DNA of 64,000 nucleotides from a virus: positions 23,182 to 87,181 of IMG/VR virus record IMGVR_UViG_3300032240_001244; one strand, written 5' to 3'. Positions within the stretch are counted from its first letter, which is position 1. Each line of letters begins with the position of its first letter. Positions 4,969 through 33,186 of this stretch are shown one piece after another. A program made the position numbers and the translations under genes. Below the pieces are notes generated by a model, which did no database searches, was not told where the DNA came from, and saw nothing but the letters and a program-made list of their open reading frames with translations.

Positions 4969-5998
4969 GGATAGACTCCTTGACATATTTTCTAAACTCA
5001 AAAACGATGAGAAGCCTACTAATCTACACTACAATAGTAAAGTGTTGATTATAGATGGGATGAATACATTCCTTAGAAGCTTCGCAGTTGTTAATAGGAT
5101 AAACCTAGCAGGTAATGATGTAGGTGGGTTGATTGGATTTTTGAAATCACTTGGACATGCAATAAAACTGTTATCCCCGACTCGTGTAGTAATCGTCTTT
5201 GACGGTGAAGGCGGGTCGGGAAACAGAAAATATCTTTACAGCCAATACAAAGGAAATAGAGATACCGGGAGAATTATGAACTATAAATCCTTCCAGACAA
5301 AAGATGCAGAAGATGATTCCAAATACAACCAGATAACCAGACTGGTAGACTATCTACATTTTTTACCTGTGTCTTTACTATCTTTTGATAAGCTTGAGGC
5401 AGATGATGTAATGGGATATTTAGCAGGAAGAATCTATAAAGATTATAAGGATTCTCAAGTATACCTCATGTCTTCAGACAATGACTTTATGCAGTTAGTA
5501 AACGATAGAGTTAAAGTATATAGTCCAACAAAGAAAAAGATATATGGGGTTGAGAATGTGTTAGAAGATTTTGGTATACATCCAGACAACTTCTTATTGT
5601 ACAAAGCTCTAGTAGGAGACACATCAGACAATATACCTGGAGTAAATGGATTAGGTGAAAAGAATGTAGTGAAGCTTTTTGAATTTATATCAAAGCCAGA
5701 AAGAAAAACATTACAGGACGTTTATCAGGTATGCGAAAATCCCCCTAAGAAGTCAGCACTATATGAAAGAATATTGAATGTTAGTAAGCAAGTAGAAATT
5801 TTCTATAAGATTATGAACATCATGGAACCTAATATATCTGAAGATACGATTGTAGAAATTATGGAAAAATACCATACTAAGGCTCCGGCTTTGAATAAGT
5901 ATGATTTCATGAAACTATATAATCATGATAAAATGGGAGATGCTATACCGCATTTAGATCTATGGATAAATTTATATTCCACATTGAACAATTATTAA
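4961..5998 (+). CDS. 5'-3' exonuclease / flap endonuclease (PolI N-terminal / T4 RNase H family)
   Basis: LIIDGMN, VFDG, YKGNR, EADD, SSDND, GDTSDNIPGVNGLGEK motifs. Confidence 0.9.
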   Translation: MNKDRLLDIFSKLKNDEKPTNLHYNSKVLIIDGMNTFLRSFAVVNRINLAGNDVGGLIGFLKSLGHAIKLLSPTRVVIVFDGEGGSGNRKYLYSQYKGNRDTGRIMNYKSFQTKDAEDDSKYNQITRLVDYLHFLPVSLLSFDKLEADDVMGYLAGRIYKDYKDSQVYLMSSDNDFMQLVNDRVKVYSPTKKKIYGVENVLEDFGIHPDNFLLYKALVGDTSDNIPGVNGLGEKNVVKLFEFISKPERKTLQDVYQVCENPPKKSALYERILNVSKQVEIFYKIMNIMEPNISEDTIVEIMEKYHTKAPALNKYDFMKLYNHDKMGDAIPHLDLWINLYSTLNNY

Positions 5999-12816: not shown

Positions 12817-13067
12817 TGGATATAACATATTCTATAACAGAATTTGTATGGGTTAAAAAAGATAATTCTTTTTATGCCGATGCGGATAGATTACATCCCG
12901 AAGGAGATTACAAGTGTACTTTCCCAAATGGTAGGAAGAAGTTTTATATTAAAAATAATAATACAAAAGGATTTAGAAGATTTATATTAAATAAGGAATG
13001 CGGTACCGTTTTACAGTTTATAAGTGAAGATGGTATATTATGTAACATACAAACAAAAACAAAATGA
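12816..13067 (+). CDS. hypothetical protein between groES and groEL
   Basis: 83 aa ORF overlapping both neighbours (TAATG, ATGA junctions). Confidence 0.65.
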   Translation: MDITYSITEFVWVKKDNSFYADADRLHPEGDYKCTFPNGRKKFYIKNNNTKGFRRFILNKECGTVLQFISEDGILCNIQTKTK

Positions 13068-14716
13068 TAAAGACAGAATTTGGAACAGATCTTAAAAAAA
13101 GACTCTTAGACGGAGTAAACAAGATTAATGCCAGTGTTTCATCAACACTAGGTCCAGCAGGTAGGAATGTGATCATTAGAGGTTCTGATGGTGCTATTAA
13201 GATTACTAAGGATGGTGTTACTGTAGCACAATCTTTTACTAAACTTGAAGATCCTATTGAAGATATCGGAGCACAAATGATTAAAAGCGTATCAGTTCGT
13301 TCAGCAGATAAAGCTGGTGATGGTACAACTACATCAACACTTTTGGCATCTGTAATGGTTAATGAAGGTATTAAAGCTATCACGCAAGGATCAAATGCAG
13401 TAGAAGTTAAGAAAGGTATTGATAAAGCAGTATCAGTTGTAGTAACTGCGCTAAAAGGAATATCTAAAGATATATCCTCAGAAGATCAGATCAAACAAGT
13501 AGCTACAATTTCAGCCAATAATGATACTGAGATTGGAACATTAATCGCCACTGCTTTGGATAAAGTAGGTACTGATGGTGTAGTGGCTATTGAAGAATCA
13601 AAGTCTGGTGAGACTTCTTTGGAAGTTGTAGAAGGTATGATGTTTGATAGAGGATTTAAATCTCCATACTTTGTTACAGACAATTCAACAATGCAAGCTG
13701 TGTTTGATAAACCATTAATTTTCTTGTATGATGGTAGACTTACAAGTACTGCACAAGTGCTCCCTCTTCTTCAAGCAGCTCATGCTGAAAGTCTTCCTTT
13801 GCTTATCATTGCTGAAGACATTGAACACGAGGCTTTGGCTATCTTAGTAGTAAATAAAGCAAATGCTACAATCAAAGTATGTGCTGTAAAGGCTCCTGAC
13901 TTTGGTGATCGTAGAACAGCAATTCTAGAAGACATTGCAATCCTTACTGGCGGTACTGTTGTATCTCCTACCAAGGGTAATAAGATTGATAAGATGAAGC
14001 CTGATGAGTTTAAGCCATTGTTTGGTAAGGCTCGAATGGTGAATGTATCATCTAAAGATACTACTATCATTGATGGTAAAGGATCAGTAGAAGGAATTGA
14101 GCAAAGACTGAACGATATTAAAACTCAGATTGATATAGCCAAGTCTAACTTTGAAGTTGAAAAGCTTCAAGAAAGATTATCAAAGCTTACTGGCGGTGTT
14201 GCTATTATCAATGTTGGTGGTATGAGTGAGATTGAAATGAAAGAAAAGAAGGATCGTGTAGATGACGCACTACACGCTACTAAAGCTGCCTTAGATCAAG
14301 GTATTGTTCCTGGTGGTGGTATGGCTTTGATTAACTGTATAGAGTTGCTTAAAGAGGCTGTATTGGATTGTGACAACGATGATCAAGAGCTTGGTGTACG
14401 AATTGTCACTAAAGCTTTATACGCACCGTTTAAAACTATTCTTACCAACGCTGGTATTGAGAATGCTTATGAGATTTTAAGCAGTGTTAAGAGCTATTCT
14501 CAAGATGAAGATAACTCAGATTGGTACGGATATAATGCTAAGACGGGAGAGATCCAAGATTTTCTACAAGCAGGTATTCTAGATCCAACCAAAGTAACTA
14601 GAACAGCTATTGAGAATGCTGCTAGCGTAGCCGGTACTATTCTAACTACAGAGTCAGTAGTATACTTTACTGGAGATGATAAGAAAGAAGATATAGATTA
14701 TAGTCAATTCATGTAA
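13064..14716 (+). CDS. groEL: chaperonin GroEL
   Basis: [41 protein letters not shown]. Confidence 0.97.
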
Positions 14717-22804: not shown

Positions 22805-23464
22805 ATGTCTAGAAAATTTTCTATTATAATACCTACAATGTTCAAATGTCCGGACATTACAAATGAACTTTTGGCTAATTTGTATGAAGATCCTGCTGTA
22901 TCTGAAGTAATACTAATAAATAATACAGAAGAGCATAATAACGTTACTAAAATAAATGTTAACGGAAAACTTCAAATACATTCAAAAAATAAAAATTTAT
23001 ACGTAAATCCTTCTTGGAATTTAGGAGTGTCTGTTGCTAAAGAATCTTATCTGGGCATCCTTAATGATGATATTATTATTGCAGAGGGGTTATTTTCTGG
23101 GCTATCTAAGGTAGCTATTGAAAATTTAGGCGTAATAGGGGCGTCACATGGATCAATTATGGGATTAGATAAACCGGAAAGATTTTTGGCAACAGAGTTC
23201 CATATTGTAGGTATGCCAGAAAGAACGTGGGGATTTGGTGTTTTTATGGTTATTTATAAAAATCACTACTCGCAAATACCCGAAGACATGAAAATATGGT
23301 GCGGAGATGATTACATATACCACCAGAATAGAATAGCAGGTAGACAAAATTGCGTGCTAATGTGTCCAATAAAAACAAAAATGAGTATGACTTCTAATAA
23401 TTCCGTATTTGAAGAGATAAAAAATAATGATATAGAAGTGTACAATTCAAAATATAAAGTATGA
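22805..23464 (+). CDS. glycosyltransferase family 2
   Basis: FSIIIPT, INN, WNLG, LNDD, WCGDD. Confidence 0.8.
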   Translation: MSRKFSIIIPTMFKCPDITNELLANLYEDPAVSEVILINNTEEHNNVTKINVNGKLQIHSKNKNLYVNPSWNLGVSVAKESYLGILNDDIIIAEGLFSGLSKVAIENLGVIGASHGSIMGLDKPERFLATEFHIVGMPERTWGFGVFMVIYKNHYSQIPEDMKIWCGDDYIYHQNRIAGRQNCVLMCPIKTKMSMTSNNSVFEEIKNNDIEVYNSKYKV

Positions 23465-29889: not shown

Positions 29890-30591
29890 ATGCAAATCAA
29901 ATCTTTCAAAAAAGAGAAATCTAATAGAGGGCAAGACCTTAATATAGAAAGGCAAGCTATTGAAAGAGCTATGAGAGATACTATGTCAAACAAAGCTGCG
30001 GCAAGGTTCTTAGGAGTATCTTTTAAAACATATAAGAAATACGCCCAGATGTACCGTAATGAAGATGGTATAACCTTATATGAGCTACATAAGAACCAAG
30101 CTGCTAAAGGTATTCCTAAGTTTGGCAAGAGGAGGCATGACAAGGCTTCCATCATGGATATCATGGAAGGGAGAGTCCCTAAAACATTTGTATCAATTAA
30201 AATATTAAAACATCAAATAATACAGCATGGAATCTTAAAAGAAGAATGTTGTAGGTGTGGATTCAAAGAGCAGCGTGTATTAGATTACAAGACCCCTCTT
30301 ATAATGAATTTTAGGGATGGAGATAAAAAAAATTGGGCTTTAGAAAACATAGAATTTCTATGCTATAATTGTTTTTTTCTTTGTGTAGGAGAAGTTTTTA
30401 CAAATAAACAACTGTCTGTAATGGAAGATTTTACAGATTTAAGATCTGTTAAAATAGATCTAGACTTGCCAGTAAAACATGAGGAAGCCATAAAAGAATC
30501 AATTAACCTGGAAAATAAACATATTTATAGTAGTGAAGAAAGGCCAGAGGATTACGGAGATGATTTAATATCAACATTCAGAAGACGATGA
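29890..30591 (+). CDS. HTH plus degenerate HNH-like zinc-binding protein
   Basis: NKAAARFLGVSFKTYKKY (HTH); CCRC ... NFRDGDKKNWALENIEFLCYNC (HNH-like, catalytic His replaced). Confidence 0.65.
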   Translation: MQIKSFKKEKSNRGQDLNIERQAIERAMRDTMSNKAAARFLGVSFKTYKKYAQMYRNEDGITLYELHKNQAAKGIPKFGKRRHDKASIMDIMEGRVPKTFVSIKILKHQIIQHGILKEECCRCGFKEQRVLDYKTPLIMNFRDGDKKNWALENIEFLCYNCFFLCVGEVFTNKQLSVMEDFTDLRSVKIDLDLPVKHEEAIKESINLENKHIYSSEERPEDYGDDLISTFRRR

Positions 30592-31281: not shown

Positions 31282-31300
31282 ATATTTATATATATCTTTG
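31269..31300 (+). promoter_or_regulatory. Bacteroidota-type sigma70 promoter upstream of lipoprotein and tmRNA
   Basis: TTTG 31269-31272, 20-nt spacer, TATCTTTG 31293-31300. Confidence 0.7.
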
Positions 31301-31320
31301 TAAATATAATATAATATAAA

Positions 31321-31515
31321 ATGAAAAAAGCATTTATTATTTTTTTGTTATCTTTGTTTGTAGTATCCTGTGGAGGATCTAATGAAAGTAAACCTGTAGA
31401 AGCTACATATGCACCAGTAGGAGTTGATAGTTCAAATATACTACCTCCACTTACGGATAGTGCTAAGATTGAATTGAATGGAGAAAAACCAAAGCCACAG
31501 TTGAACGAGAATTAA
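31321..31515 (+). CDS. small lipoprotein
   Basis: Lipobox FVVSC after hydrophobic signal. Confidence 0.7.
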   Translation: MKKAFIIFLLSLFVVSCGGSNESKPVEATYAPVGVDSSNILPPLTDSAKIELNGEKPKPQLNEN

Positions 31516-31521
31516 AAATAA

Positions 31522-32207
31522 GGGCCTAACCGGTATCGATTCGTAATCGGAGGGTAGTACCACACGCAGAGATAAGTACTAGATCTCTTTAAACTCTGTA
31601 CAAAATATAAACGACGAAATGTCTACTATGACCTTCGATGACCTTATGGCCTTCGTTGGTGCCGATGAAGCAACATTTGCTTAGTCCGCCGAGGTGTCTA
31701 CAACCTCGCTTCAAACAAAGTGGAACACAGAGTTTCCCCGATCGACTCTTTAAATAAGGACTGGGGTGGTGGAAAGCTGTCTCCGGACAACCCCTTACTG
31801 ATCAGCTTGCAGATCAAAACTACGGTGCAGATGACGGGGGATCTCCCTCTTGATTGTCAGTACTAAGCGTGTGATATGCTGGTATTATTGTTCATTACGA
31901 AGACGTGGGTTTGTGGAATCGGACCCATCTAGTAGGAATACTAGATTAAAAACTGGATGAATTGCTGGAACTCCTATGACATAGGACAATCAGCAGCCAA
32001 GCCTAAAGTACACTTTAGGAAGGTTCAACGACTAGCGGAGAGATAAAGTTCTCTTAATAACCGCACTAGCGTCCAGCACCCAGATCGGGTGATGATATAG
32101 TCTGATCCTCTTGGTAACAAGAGTTGTAGTTCTTTACGAGGCTGTCTATGAAATCTAAAGTTTCTGGATCTAACAAAAGAATACCAGTGCGAATCCCACT
32201 AGGTCCA
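31522..32207 (+). ncRNA. ssrA: tmRNA interrupted by a group I intron (exon 1 31522-31911, exon 2 32190-32207)
   Basis: Acceptor GGGCCTA/TAGGTCC-A with G3.U wobble; helix 2 TCGTAAT/ATTACGA, GTAGTACCA/TGGTATTAT, CACGC/GCGTG; PK1 AGAGAT/ATCTCT; tag frame 31613-31684; T-arm GTGGG-TT|CGAAT-CCCAC restored on splicing. Confidence 0.92.
31912..32189 (+). mobile_element. group I intron (subgroup IA-like, no ORF) in tmRNA T-loop
   Basis: P1 GTGGGTT/GACCCAT with U.G at 5' splice site; P AATTGCTGGAA, Q AATCAGCAG, R GTTCAACGACTA, S ATGATATAGTCT; P3 CTGGATG/CGTCCAG; P8 CACCC/GGGTG; P9 with GTAA loop; terminal G 32189. Confidence 0.92.
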
Positions 32208-32240
32208 CTTAAAGGTTTAGGTTAGGATTATGGTTAAAAC

Positions 32241-32271
32241 GAAGGGGGGTTTCTACCCCCTTTCTCTTTTT
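32241..32271 (+). terminator. intrinsic terminator after tmRNA
   Basis: GAAGGGGGGT-TTCT-ACCCCCTTTC hairpin followed by T-rich tract. Confidence 0.8.
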
Positions 32272-32302
32272 GTATATATTTATATTAAACAAAATAATTT
32301 AT

Positions 32303-32824
32303 ATGAAAAGTTTAATGTTAGCAGTTATTGTTTTAATTGGGATGGTTTCATGTTCTAAAGTCCCAGACAATAAAGTACACGAATCCAAAGTAGAATTAGG
32401 CGGATTTCAGTACGATCCAATAGTAAAAAAACCGGTTCAAGTTCAAGAAGAGTATTATCAAATAGCACCTACATGGGGACAGGCTTTTGATTACGCTTCT
32501 AAGAGAAGTGATCACATTATTTATACTGTACTAGGGGTGATATTCTTAATAGCTTTCGTTGCTTTATTCTATGGAAAAGCCTCAGATGCTAGCTGGCTAC
32601 CTAAGTTCCTTGATAATGAAATTATATTTGTAGCTGCTTTATTTCTTCTAGTAGCATCTACAGTTACATTTTTTACTACCCATGCTTCTGAAGTTAGATG
32701 GCAAAATGACAAGTGGGTTAAAAAAGAAGTGTACGATAAGGCAATAAAAGAAGCAGGATCTACTCAGCCAATTTGGGATAGCCTTGAGGCCAATCATTTG
32801 ATCATAGGTGGACCATGGAAGTAG
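32303..32824 (+). CDS. membrane lipoprotein-like protein
   Basis: Lipobox GMVSC plus two further hydrophobic helices; ATG 32303. Confidence 0.65.
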   Translation: MKSLMLAVIVLIGMVSCSKVPDNKVHESKVELGGFQYDPIVKKPVQVQEEYYQIAPTWGQAFDYASKRSDHIIYTVLGVIFLIAFVALFYGKASDASWLPKFLDNEIIFVAALFLLVASTVTFFTTHASEVRWQNDKWVKKEVYDKAIKEAGSTQPIWDSLEANHLIIGGPWK

Positions 32825-33186
32825 TAGAAAGTCTTATACTGTCTTTATTATTCACAGGCATCAATATCGGGTTAGCCCGGTATGATGCTTGGAGAATAAA
32901 ACATAACATTAGAATAAGACATGCAATTAATGCTTTATTGTATTGTATTTTATTAATACCTTTCTATAGATGCCTATCAATTTATAATTTGATAGGTCTT
33001 TTATTAATTAGAATACCTGTGTTTAATACCTGTTTAAATGTGTTTAGGGGGCTATCTGCTACATACATAAGCCACACTACTACCAGTATAGTAGATAAAA
33101 TAATGAATGGTGTAGTAGAAAAGCTAGGGTATTGGGTATATCATATTATAATATACATCATAGCTATAGTATTAATATTTATGTAA
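32815..33186 (+). CDS. multi-pass membrane protein
   Basis: About four hydrophobic segments. Confidence 0.65.
   Translation: MEVVESLILSLLFTGINIGLARYDAWRIKHNIRIRHAINALLYCILLIPFYRCLSIYNLIGLLLIRIPVFNTCLNVFRGLSATYISHTTTSIVDKIMNGVVEKLGYWVYHIIIYIIAIVLIFM

Follow-up and report, generated by a model that had tools for sequence, protein, structure and literature searches.

A phage tmRNA gene interrupted in its T-loop by a group I intron

The split tmRNA gene and its intron

The window analyzed here, a stretch of 64,000 nt (positions 23,182 to 87,181 of the IMG/VR virus record IMGVR_UViG_3300032240_001244), harbors on its plus strand a tmRNA gene whose two exons are separated by a group I intron of 278 nt. 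The 5′ exon (31522–31911), delimited by ARAGORN after removal of 31912–32189 and sharing 94.5% identity with the unbroken tmRNA gene in a sister phage (L007), begins with the 5′ strand of the acceptor stem, GGGCCTA (31522–31528), which supplies G3 of the G3-U pair. It continues through the pseudoknot and the mRNA-like body, and ends with the 5′ strand of the T-stem, GTGGG (31905–31909), and TT (31910–31911), nucleotides 1 and 2 of the T-loop. The 3′ exon (32190–32208, plus strand) provides T-loop nucleotides 3–7 (CGAAT), the CCCAC strand of the T-stem, the TAGGTCC strand of the acceptor stem and the discriminator A32207; this 19-nt string is identical in the window, in L007 and in a second sister phage, L006. 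Inspected by eye, GGGCCTA and TAGGTCC form an acceptor stem of 7 bp with the G3-T pair in the gene, and the T-arm and the discriminator A are present. The CCA end is not encoded, the gene reading A-CTT after the acceptor stem. The original prediction had described a tmRNA with a G3-U acceptor and a tag frame, split in the T-arm by 278 nt; the sequence is as described, and ARAGORN recognizes a tmRNA once the insert is taken out.

The tag reading frame (31613–31684, plus strand) encodes DEMSTMTFDDLMAFVGADEATFA and is closed by a TAG stop. ARAGORN places the resume codon at GAC in position 31613, while the exact resume codon is ambiguous because the program chooses later Ala codons in some relatives. 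Among 28 unique relatives with the same tag length, variable codon columns are found in 16/24 cases at position 3, 5/24 at position 1 and 3/24 at position 2; the same count made by hand outside the columns of the search pattern gives 13/14, 5/14 and 3/14 for positions 3, 1 and 2. This third-position bias clearly points to coding constraint on the long tag. The tag belongs to a family of 23–24 aa, DEMSTMTF(D/E)DLM(A/S)FVGA..., which is found in freshwater phage tmRNAs (the window and 111 related loci). It ends with DEATFA in the window, L006 and L007, and 19 of the 20 other tmRNA tag peptides compared have a C-terminal AA (YAVAA, YALAA, YAYAA, YAMAA), the remaining one ending with YE; a chance protein-coding match, L129, is left out of this count.

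Downstream, a terminator-like hairpin with a T run lies at 32241–32264 (plus strand), 33 nt past the 3′ end of the tmRNA, with a stem of 10 pairs including 6 GC pairs. Terminator-like sites in the region number 7, against 0.8 expected from shuffles, and this hairpin is kept in L007. A scan specific to the sigma-70 type found no promoter-like sequence on the plus strand upstream of the tmRNA. Two membrane-protein ORFs (32270–33186, plus strand), directly downstream of the tmRNA, are without counterpart in L006 or L007; homologues of the first one, 47–50% identical, follow the tmRNA gene of more distantly related phages (L010). This pattern of ORFs suggests mosaic exchange on the 3′ side of the tmRNA.

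The intron itself (31912–32189, plus strand) is identified by its match to the Rfam model Intron_gpI (RF00028), and its boundaries are set by the empty-site allele of L007. The match spans 31901–32124 and the whole model (1–253), with 96.3 bits (gathering score 50; E 1.4e-23), and a scan of the entire window at Rfam gathering thresholds gave two matches, this intron and an unrelated tRNA-Met. In the Rfam alignment, P1 is formed by 31905–31913 and 31920–31928 with a wobble pair U31911-G31922. A second wobble, U31912-G31921, is present in P1, and the 7-nt T-loop is restored solely by a cut after 31911. Reading of the alignment by eye places P2 at about 31929–31934/31939–31944 with a GGAA loop, P3 at about 31953–31959/32070–32076 and P4–P6 at 31963–32028. 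P7, read from the alignment together with the sequence, pairs GACUA (32030–32034) with UAGUC (32098–32102); as a pseudoknot it lies outside the RNAalifold model. An insertion of 33 nt between P7 and the 3′ strand of P3 forms a P7.1-like hairpin (32035–32064), and the consensus positions of the alignment give P8 at 32078–32081/32087–32090 and P9 at 32108–32113/32118–32123 with a GUAA loop. The tail after P9 is 66 nt long and ends in the omega G, G32189, directly 5′ of CGAATCCCAC. Of the hallmarks originally listed, P1 with U31911-G31922, P3, P7, P8 and P9 are borne out by the Rfam score and alignment, and the terminal G32189 by the sequence and the boundary in L007. The P10 proposed with them, GGAAUCG/CGAAUCC, is present, though by eye only 6 of its 7 pairs form, with one A-A mismatch. 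Furthermore, RNAalifold with six tmRNA T-loop introns found compensatory changes on both sides in 31 of 53 predicted pairs.

No ORF of at least 60 aa is found in the intron, in line with the original remark that it has none, and the longest small frames have 36 aa; it harbors no endonuclease gene. One of the small frames, 36 codons in antisense orientation (32066–32176, minus strand), ends with 32 residues equal to the C-terminus of the HNH endonuclease encoded in the L006 intron save one N/S change; this likeness arises because the end of the L006 ORF runs through the shared intron sequence.

Run on the whole contig, ARAGORN reports no tmRNA, and in the intact window it detects the tRNA-Met alone. 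Rfam at E≤10 on 31300–32400 returns 14 matches, none of them a tmRNA, which is expected for an interrupted gene. After removal of 31912–32189 in the script, ARAGORN calls a single tmRNA at window positions 31522–32208 with the tag frame at 31613–31684, and the unspliced control gives none. The score of the Rfam tmRNA model (RF00023) was taken on the natural intron-less gene of L007 as a proxy for the joined sequence of the window, and is 67.4 bits against a cut-off of 47. ARAGORN is blind to every intron-form copy tested, in the window, L006, L001 and L202. Thus, standard finders miss the intact gene, ARAGORN and the Rfam tmRNA model being silent on it, ARAGORN calls the sequence without the intron a tmRNA, and the core of the original prediction, a phage tmRNA interrupted in its T-loop by a group I intron, is supported.

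Sister alleles and mobility of the intron

Sister phage contigs were found by searching IMG/VR with two flanking ORFs, and related phage ssrA genes with and without the intron, the comparison proposed with the original prediction, do exist. In L007, with 86% identity in the upstream ORF, the tmRNA is uninterrupted, and its match of 67.4 bits extends over the entire Rfam model. Its T-arm reads GTGGGTT|CGAATCCCAC, and in the alignment with the window, GACGTGGGTT|CGAATCCCACTAGGTCCAC, exactly window positions 31912–32189 are missing. L007 is thus a natural empty site, which fixes both splice junctions without any structural assumption and places the insertion at TT|CGAAT, between nucleotides 2 and 3 of the T-loop. 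In L006, where identity in the upstream ORF is 90%, the intron of the window recurs (97.3 bits) in a form 798 nt long, with about 520 nt inserted after P9, and removal of this intron again yields a tmRNA call. The L006 intron harbors a 198-aa antisense ORF (5259–5855, minus strand) that matches an endonuclease family (phrog_3322, 6.6e-23) and an HNH family (phrog_3118, 8.7e-13), and no Pfam family at 0.01. A more distant relative, L010, has a standard tmRNA of 78.5 bits.

Between the window and L006, 3 of 253 intron positions differ, compared with 26 of 390 MAFFT columns in exon 1 (Fisher p 0.0007), 8 of these 26 differences being one 1-nt indel shift. The exons are 94–96% identical to those of the sisters and the flanks 78–80%, and the exons of the intron-bearing L006 are nearer to those of the intron-less L007 than to those of the window. 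Because the sisters have either no intron or the intron with an HNH gene, and because the intron is more alike than exons and flanks, the intron is, as judged from these sequence comparisons, a mobile element and not part of the tmRNA design. A free-standing HNH-like ORF was considered as a trans-acting nuclease of the intron, and was ruled out as it is 86–90% identical in both L006 and the intron-less L007. This ORF (29890–30591, plus strand; 233 aa) precedes the tmRNA by 930 nt and has a weak HNH-endonuclease match (phrog_14736, 1.2e-7).

A search with a tag-region pattern collected 113 loci, 46 from IMG/VR and 67 from metagenomes; they are not de-duplicated, and the overlapping collections hold 93 unique 395-nt regions. 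ARAGORN calls a standard tmRNA in 59 of them and is silent on 30 with a T-arm intact by regex, 22 are too short for judgement (including L002, a truncated locus from the L006 contig), L093 harbors the intron plus an endonuclease, and L129 is the chance match. Few members of this phage tmRNA family thus carry the intron, and its distribution is patchy. The 30 silent loci stand among 89 related loci with a T-arm intact by the regex, which is open to false positives; even uninterrupted phage tmRNAs of this tag family may often be missed by ARAGORN.

The idea that the intron of another gene was misjoined into the tmRNA during assembly deserves practically no credence. The sequence was indeed assembled from a metagenome, and group I cores recur in phage genes: by blastn, the core of this intron matches 52 phage records. 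However, the same junctions are found in two independent contigs, L006 from IMG/VR and L093 from ENA, and P1 and P10 are complementary to this T-arm specifically. In addition, 100% of the sampled words of 31300–32400 are present in one public run, though this run may be the source sample.

Relatives in bacteria and in other phages

The first case of an intron-form tmRNA is said to be that of Williams in 2002 (NAR 30:179). The intron form is now one of three main forms of tmRNA genes and is represented by 883 unique sequences from 21 bacterial phyla, according to the available part of the 2025 tmRNA database survey (PMC11915505), so that the original statement of a few cases in Clostridia is outdated. 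In the same part of the survey, all known sites are in the T-loop, at internucleotide subsites 2, 3, 7 and 8, and subsite 3 is known from the class Bacteroidia only; the introns average 293 nt, and endonuclease genes, of the LAGLIDADG type, are found in 4.1% (PMC11915505). By the legend of its Figure 2, subsite 3 is the position after loop nucleotide 2, which is where the window intron lies. The window gene shares with the bacterial class a one-piece tmRNA, a group I intron in the TΨC loop, the U-G pair at position −1 in P1 and the omega G, as well as its invisibility to ARAGORN and RF00023, and its short intron without an ORF is like most of the class as far as the available text describes it (PMC11915505). 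Unlike the bacterial subsite-3 forms, it is carried by a phage, outside the Bacteroidia range reported there, and the endonuclease of L006 is HNH-like and antisense in contrast to the LAGLIDADG type given for the class (PMC11915505). The CCA end is absent after the discriminator in all four subsite-3 intron-form genes examined, the window (ACTT), L001 (ACTT), L202 (ACAA) and L037 (ACAC); the standard uninterrupted relative L010 encodes it.

A BLAST search of the intron region against 401 Bacteroidia genomes gave two matches. One genome of the 401 (G056, locus L037) has a tmRNA of 76.1 bits adjoining an intron of 83.6 bits at subsite 3, the core of which is 76% identical to that of the window over 98 nt; the tag of this tmRNA is GNNQFALAA. 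The second match, in G138, was rejected as a tmRNA intron since it sits in 23S rRNA. A pattern scan of genome contigs returned 20 loci, 19 of which were rejected because no T-arm was seen upstream by eye, leaving L032 as the sole tmRNA intron. It belongs to a Lewinella MAG (L034/L032, G003), where a Saprospiraceae tmRNA of 53.4 bits adjoins a group I intron of 88.1 bits, in agreement with the published Saprospiraceae subsite; this MAG has two more group I intron matches on other contigs.

The restriction of subsite 3 to Bacteroidia in the available part of the survey (PMC11915505) and the similar intron core of G056 would fit a locus of bacterial DNA, from a host or misbinned, with an ordinary Bacteroidia intron-form tmRNA. 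This is highly improbable in view of the contig, which has 87,181 bp with 34.7% G+C and is filed in IMG/VR as a linear virus sequence with an estimated completeness of 51%. Among its products are a tail sheath (phrog_23, 6.1e-70, PHROGs) and a tail fibre (phrog_5073, 4.3e-54, PHROGs) together with DnaB, DNA polymerase, ribonucleotide reductase, GroEL and thymidylate synthase, and its genes are densely packed on a single strand. Moreover, the same tmRNA family is found in complete related records of 181–183 kb, one of which, 182,846 bp with direct terminal repeats, is 100% complete, and the 23-aa tag DEMSTMTF... is unlike the GNNQFALAA of L037. The two tail genes and the IMG/VR record identify the contig as phage. 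The phage-encoded GroEL-type chaperonin lies at 13064–14716 of the window (plus strand; phrog_5725, 6.1e-148). DNA runs with part of the stretch, taken from the run listing without mapping of reads, are mainly freshwater and wetland metagenomes. As a whole, we have good confidence in the explanation that a large freshwater myovirus carries a one-piece tmRNA gene, split after the second T-loop nucleotide by a mobile, self-splicing group I intron that has P7.1 and is of a type common in phages.

There are further phage cases in public data: LR756501, L006/L093 and L202. The first (L001, LR756501/LR756503) is a 735-kb uncultured phage whose genome comes from Al-Shayeb et al. (2020; PMC7162821). 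Its tmRNA intron (229 nt, 1506–1734; 96.1 bits) occupies the same subsite as that of the window and shares its P1 guide (AAUCGGACC), and its core is 77% identical to that of the window over about 200 nt; as in the window, ARAGORN gives a tmRNA only after intron removal, the tag is long, and CCA is not encoded. L001 differs in that its tag is unrelated and its record unannotated, and the base before its 3′ exon is A, not G (…TTTCA|CGAATCC), with no nearby G giving a canonical loop. The last base of group I introns is near-universally G; the L001 intron is either defective in splicing or a naturally occurring exception. L202 has a tmRNA intron of 688 nt (1847–2534 in reverse-complement coordinates) and an antisense ORF in which a LAGLIDADG-like motif, GFFDADGS, is seen by eye. 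In both L006 and L202, the intron endonuclease gene follows P9 and runs antisense to the tmRNA. A pattern scan had returned 4 loci with L002 alone being real, L003–L005 having no Rfam match; L002 is also silent in Rfam, its stored locus ending 99 nt after the match. A further pattern scan found intron motifs in 2 of 63 loci (L002 and L202).

Among protein-gene introns of phages, that of cyanophage S-PM2 psbA is 75.6% identical to the window core over 163 nt by blastn. The td and nrdB introns of T4 belong to the same group I class. The tmRNA introns resemble those of phage protein genes (S-PM2 psbA, crAss-like) in presence/absence polymorphism and in HNH-type endonucleases. Unlike in these cases, the host gene in the window is a structural RNA, and splicing restores an RNA fold and not a reading frame. 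The window gene also shares with standard freshwater phage tmRNAs (L010, L040, L063) the tag family, partly the same neighborhood, and the absence of a phage smpB; unlike it, those genes are uninterrupted, and tags in the family mostly end with AA.

In the literature searched, no report of a phage intron-form tmRNA was found. RefSeq viruses were included in the survey of bacterial forms, yet its available text names no phage intron form (PMC11915505). In this respect the original remark that no phage case was known stands, although the window is not unique, given the public cases above, and the novelty claimed for it was overstated. The gene form itself is well known in bacteria; only its presence in phages seems undescribed in print.

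Proposed splicing and what the intron means for phage tmRNA

Six RNA runs were found with 7–9% of the sampled words, and contigs of four of them (X15, X16, X17, X20) were mapped at 90% likeness. They cover parts of 31532–31892, mostly from relatives with 3–9 differences, and neither splice site is reached in the four runs; accordingly there is no 31911>32190 joint among these contigs, which stop short of both junctions. One RNA-library contig of 151 nt is identical to 31992–32140, with DNA carry-over possible. The sole joint seen in an RNA contig, 31665>31741 with 70 other letters between, was rejected as a splice because it is a divergent stretch of a relative. Even a spliced-looking read would be ambiguous, since intron-less alleles exist as DNA.

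If the intron were real but spliced poorly or not at all, the tmRNA copy would be a pseudogene in decay, left behind by a selfish element after loss of its endonuclease. The missing endonuclease gene, the lack of a junction-spanning RNA contig in the four runs, the C-terminus of the tag, diverged from the (Y)A(L/V/Y)AA of the family, and the A before the 3′ exon in the related L001 intron would all agree with such decay. Against this, the core scores as high as that of the endonuclease-bearing copy (96.3 vs 97.3 bits), and the −1 U-G pair, omega G, P7 and P10 are all present. The three differences from L006 fall, by eye, at 31978 in the P5 loop, at 32049 in the P7.1-like hairpin and at 32142 in the tail after P9. 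The exons are also far better conserved among the sisters than the flanks (94–96% vs 78–80%), and the tag frame is intact, so that decay appears improbable.

For an intact intron, self-splicing is inferred by analogy; the tmRNA intron of C. botulinum is cited as self-splicing in the available part of PMC2729099. Transcription of the precursor, together with the upstream genes or following them, would stop at the hairpin 32241–32264, and an RNase P cut at G31522 would make the 5′ end of the RNA. Free guanosine would attack after U31911, and the exons would be ligated after G32189, restoring GTGGG-TTCGAAT-CCCAC; the ligated product would read GTGGGTTCGAATCCCAC. Removal of the 3′ trailer and addition of CCA would next fall to host enzymes, and host AlaRS would charge the RNA with alanine via G3-U. 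Delivery to stalled ribosomes would be by host SmpB, which is presumed because no match to SmpB (PF01668) was found in the 87-kb contig, the available half (51%) of the genome, or in five related phage records, three of them 93–100% complete; this partner belongs to the rescue system as a whole and not to the RNA gene. Trans-translation would finally add the 23-residue tag. Ribosome rescue by the phage would depend on splicing, as the original prediction inferred.

A broader proposal, which we consider doubtful though conceivable, is that one intron lineage and its antisense endonucleases pass between Bacteroidia and their large phages via the T-arm as a homing site. The Bacteroidia-only occurrence of subsite 3 would then be a footprint of spread by phages, and splicing would offer a point of control ahead of the takeover of host rescue by a phage tmRNA whose tag ends in TFA, as opposed to AA.

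The finding is mechanistically ordinary and leaves the understanding of how tmRNA and group I introns work unchanged. It means, however, that phage tmRNA genes are under-counted, because ARAGORN, by which tmRNAs were called in the huge-phage survey, where the word "intron" is absent from the main text (PMC7162821), and which is used in annotation pipelines, misses the intron forms. Subsite 3, together with a related intron in Bacteroidia, gives a clue to the host and points to a route, open to testing, by which introns could pass between the phage and its host. Furthermore, the sister alleles, with no intron, with intron and endonuclease, and with intron alone, constitute a natural gain-and-decay series for a homing intron in an RNA gene.
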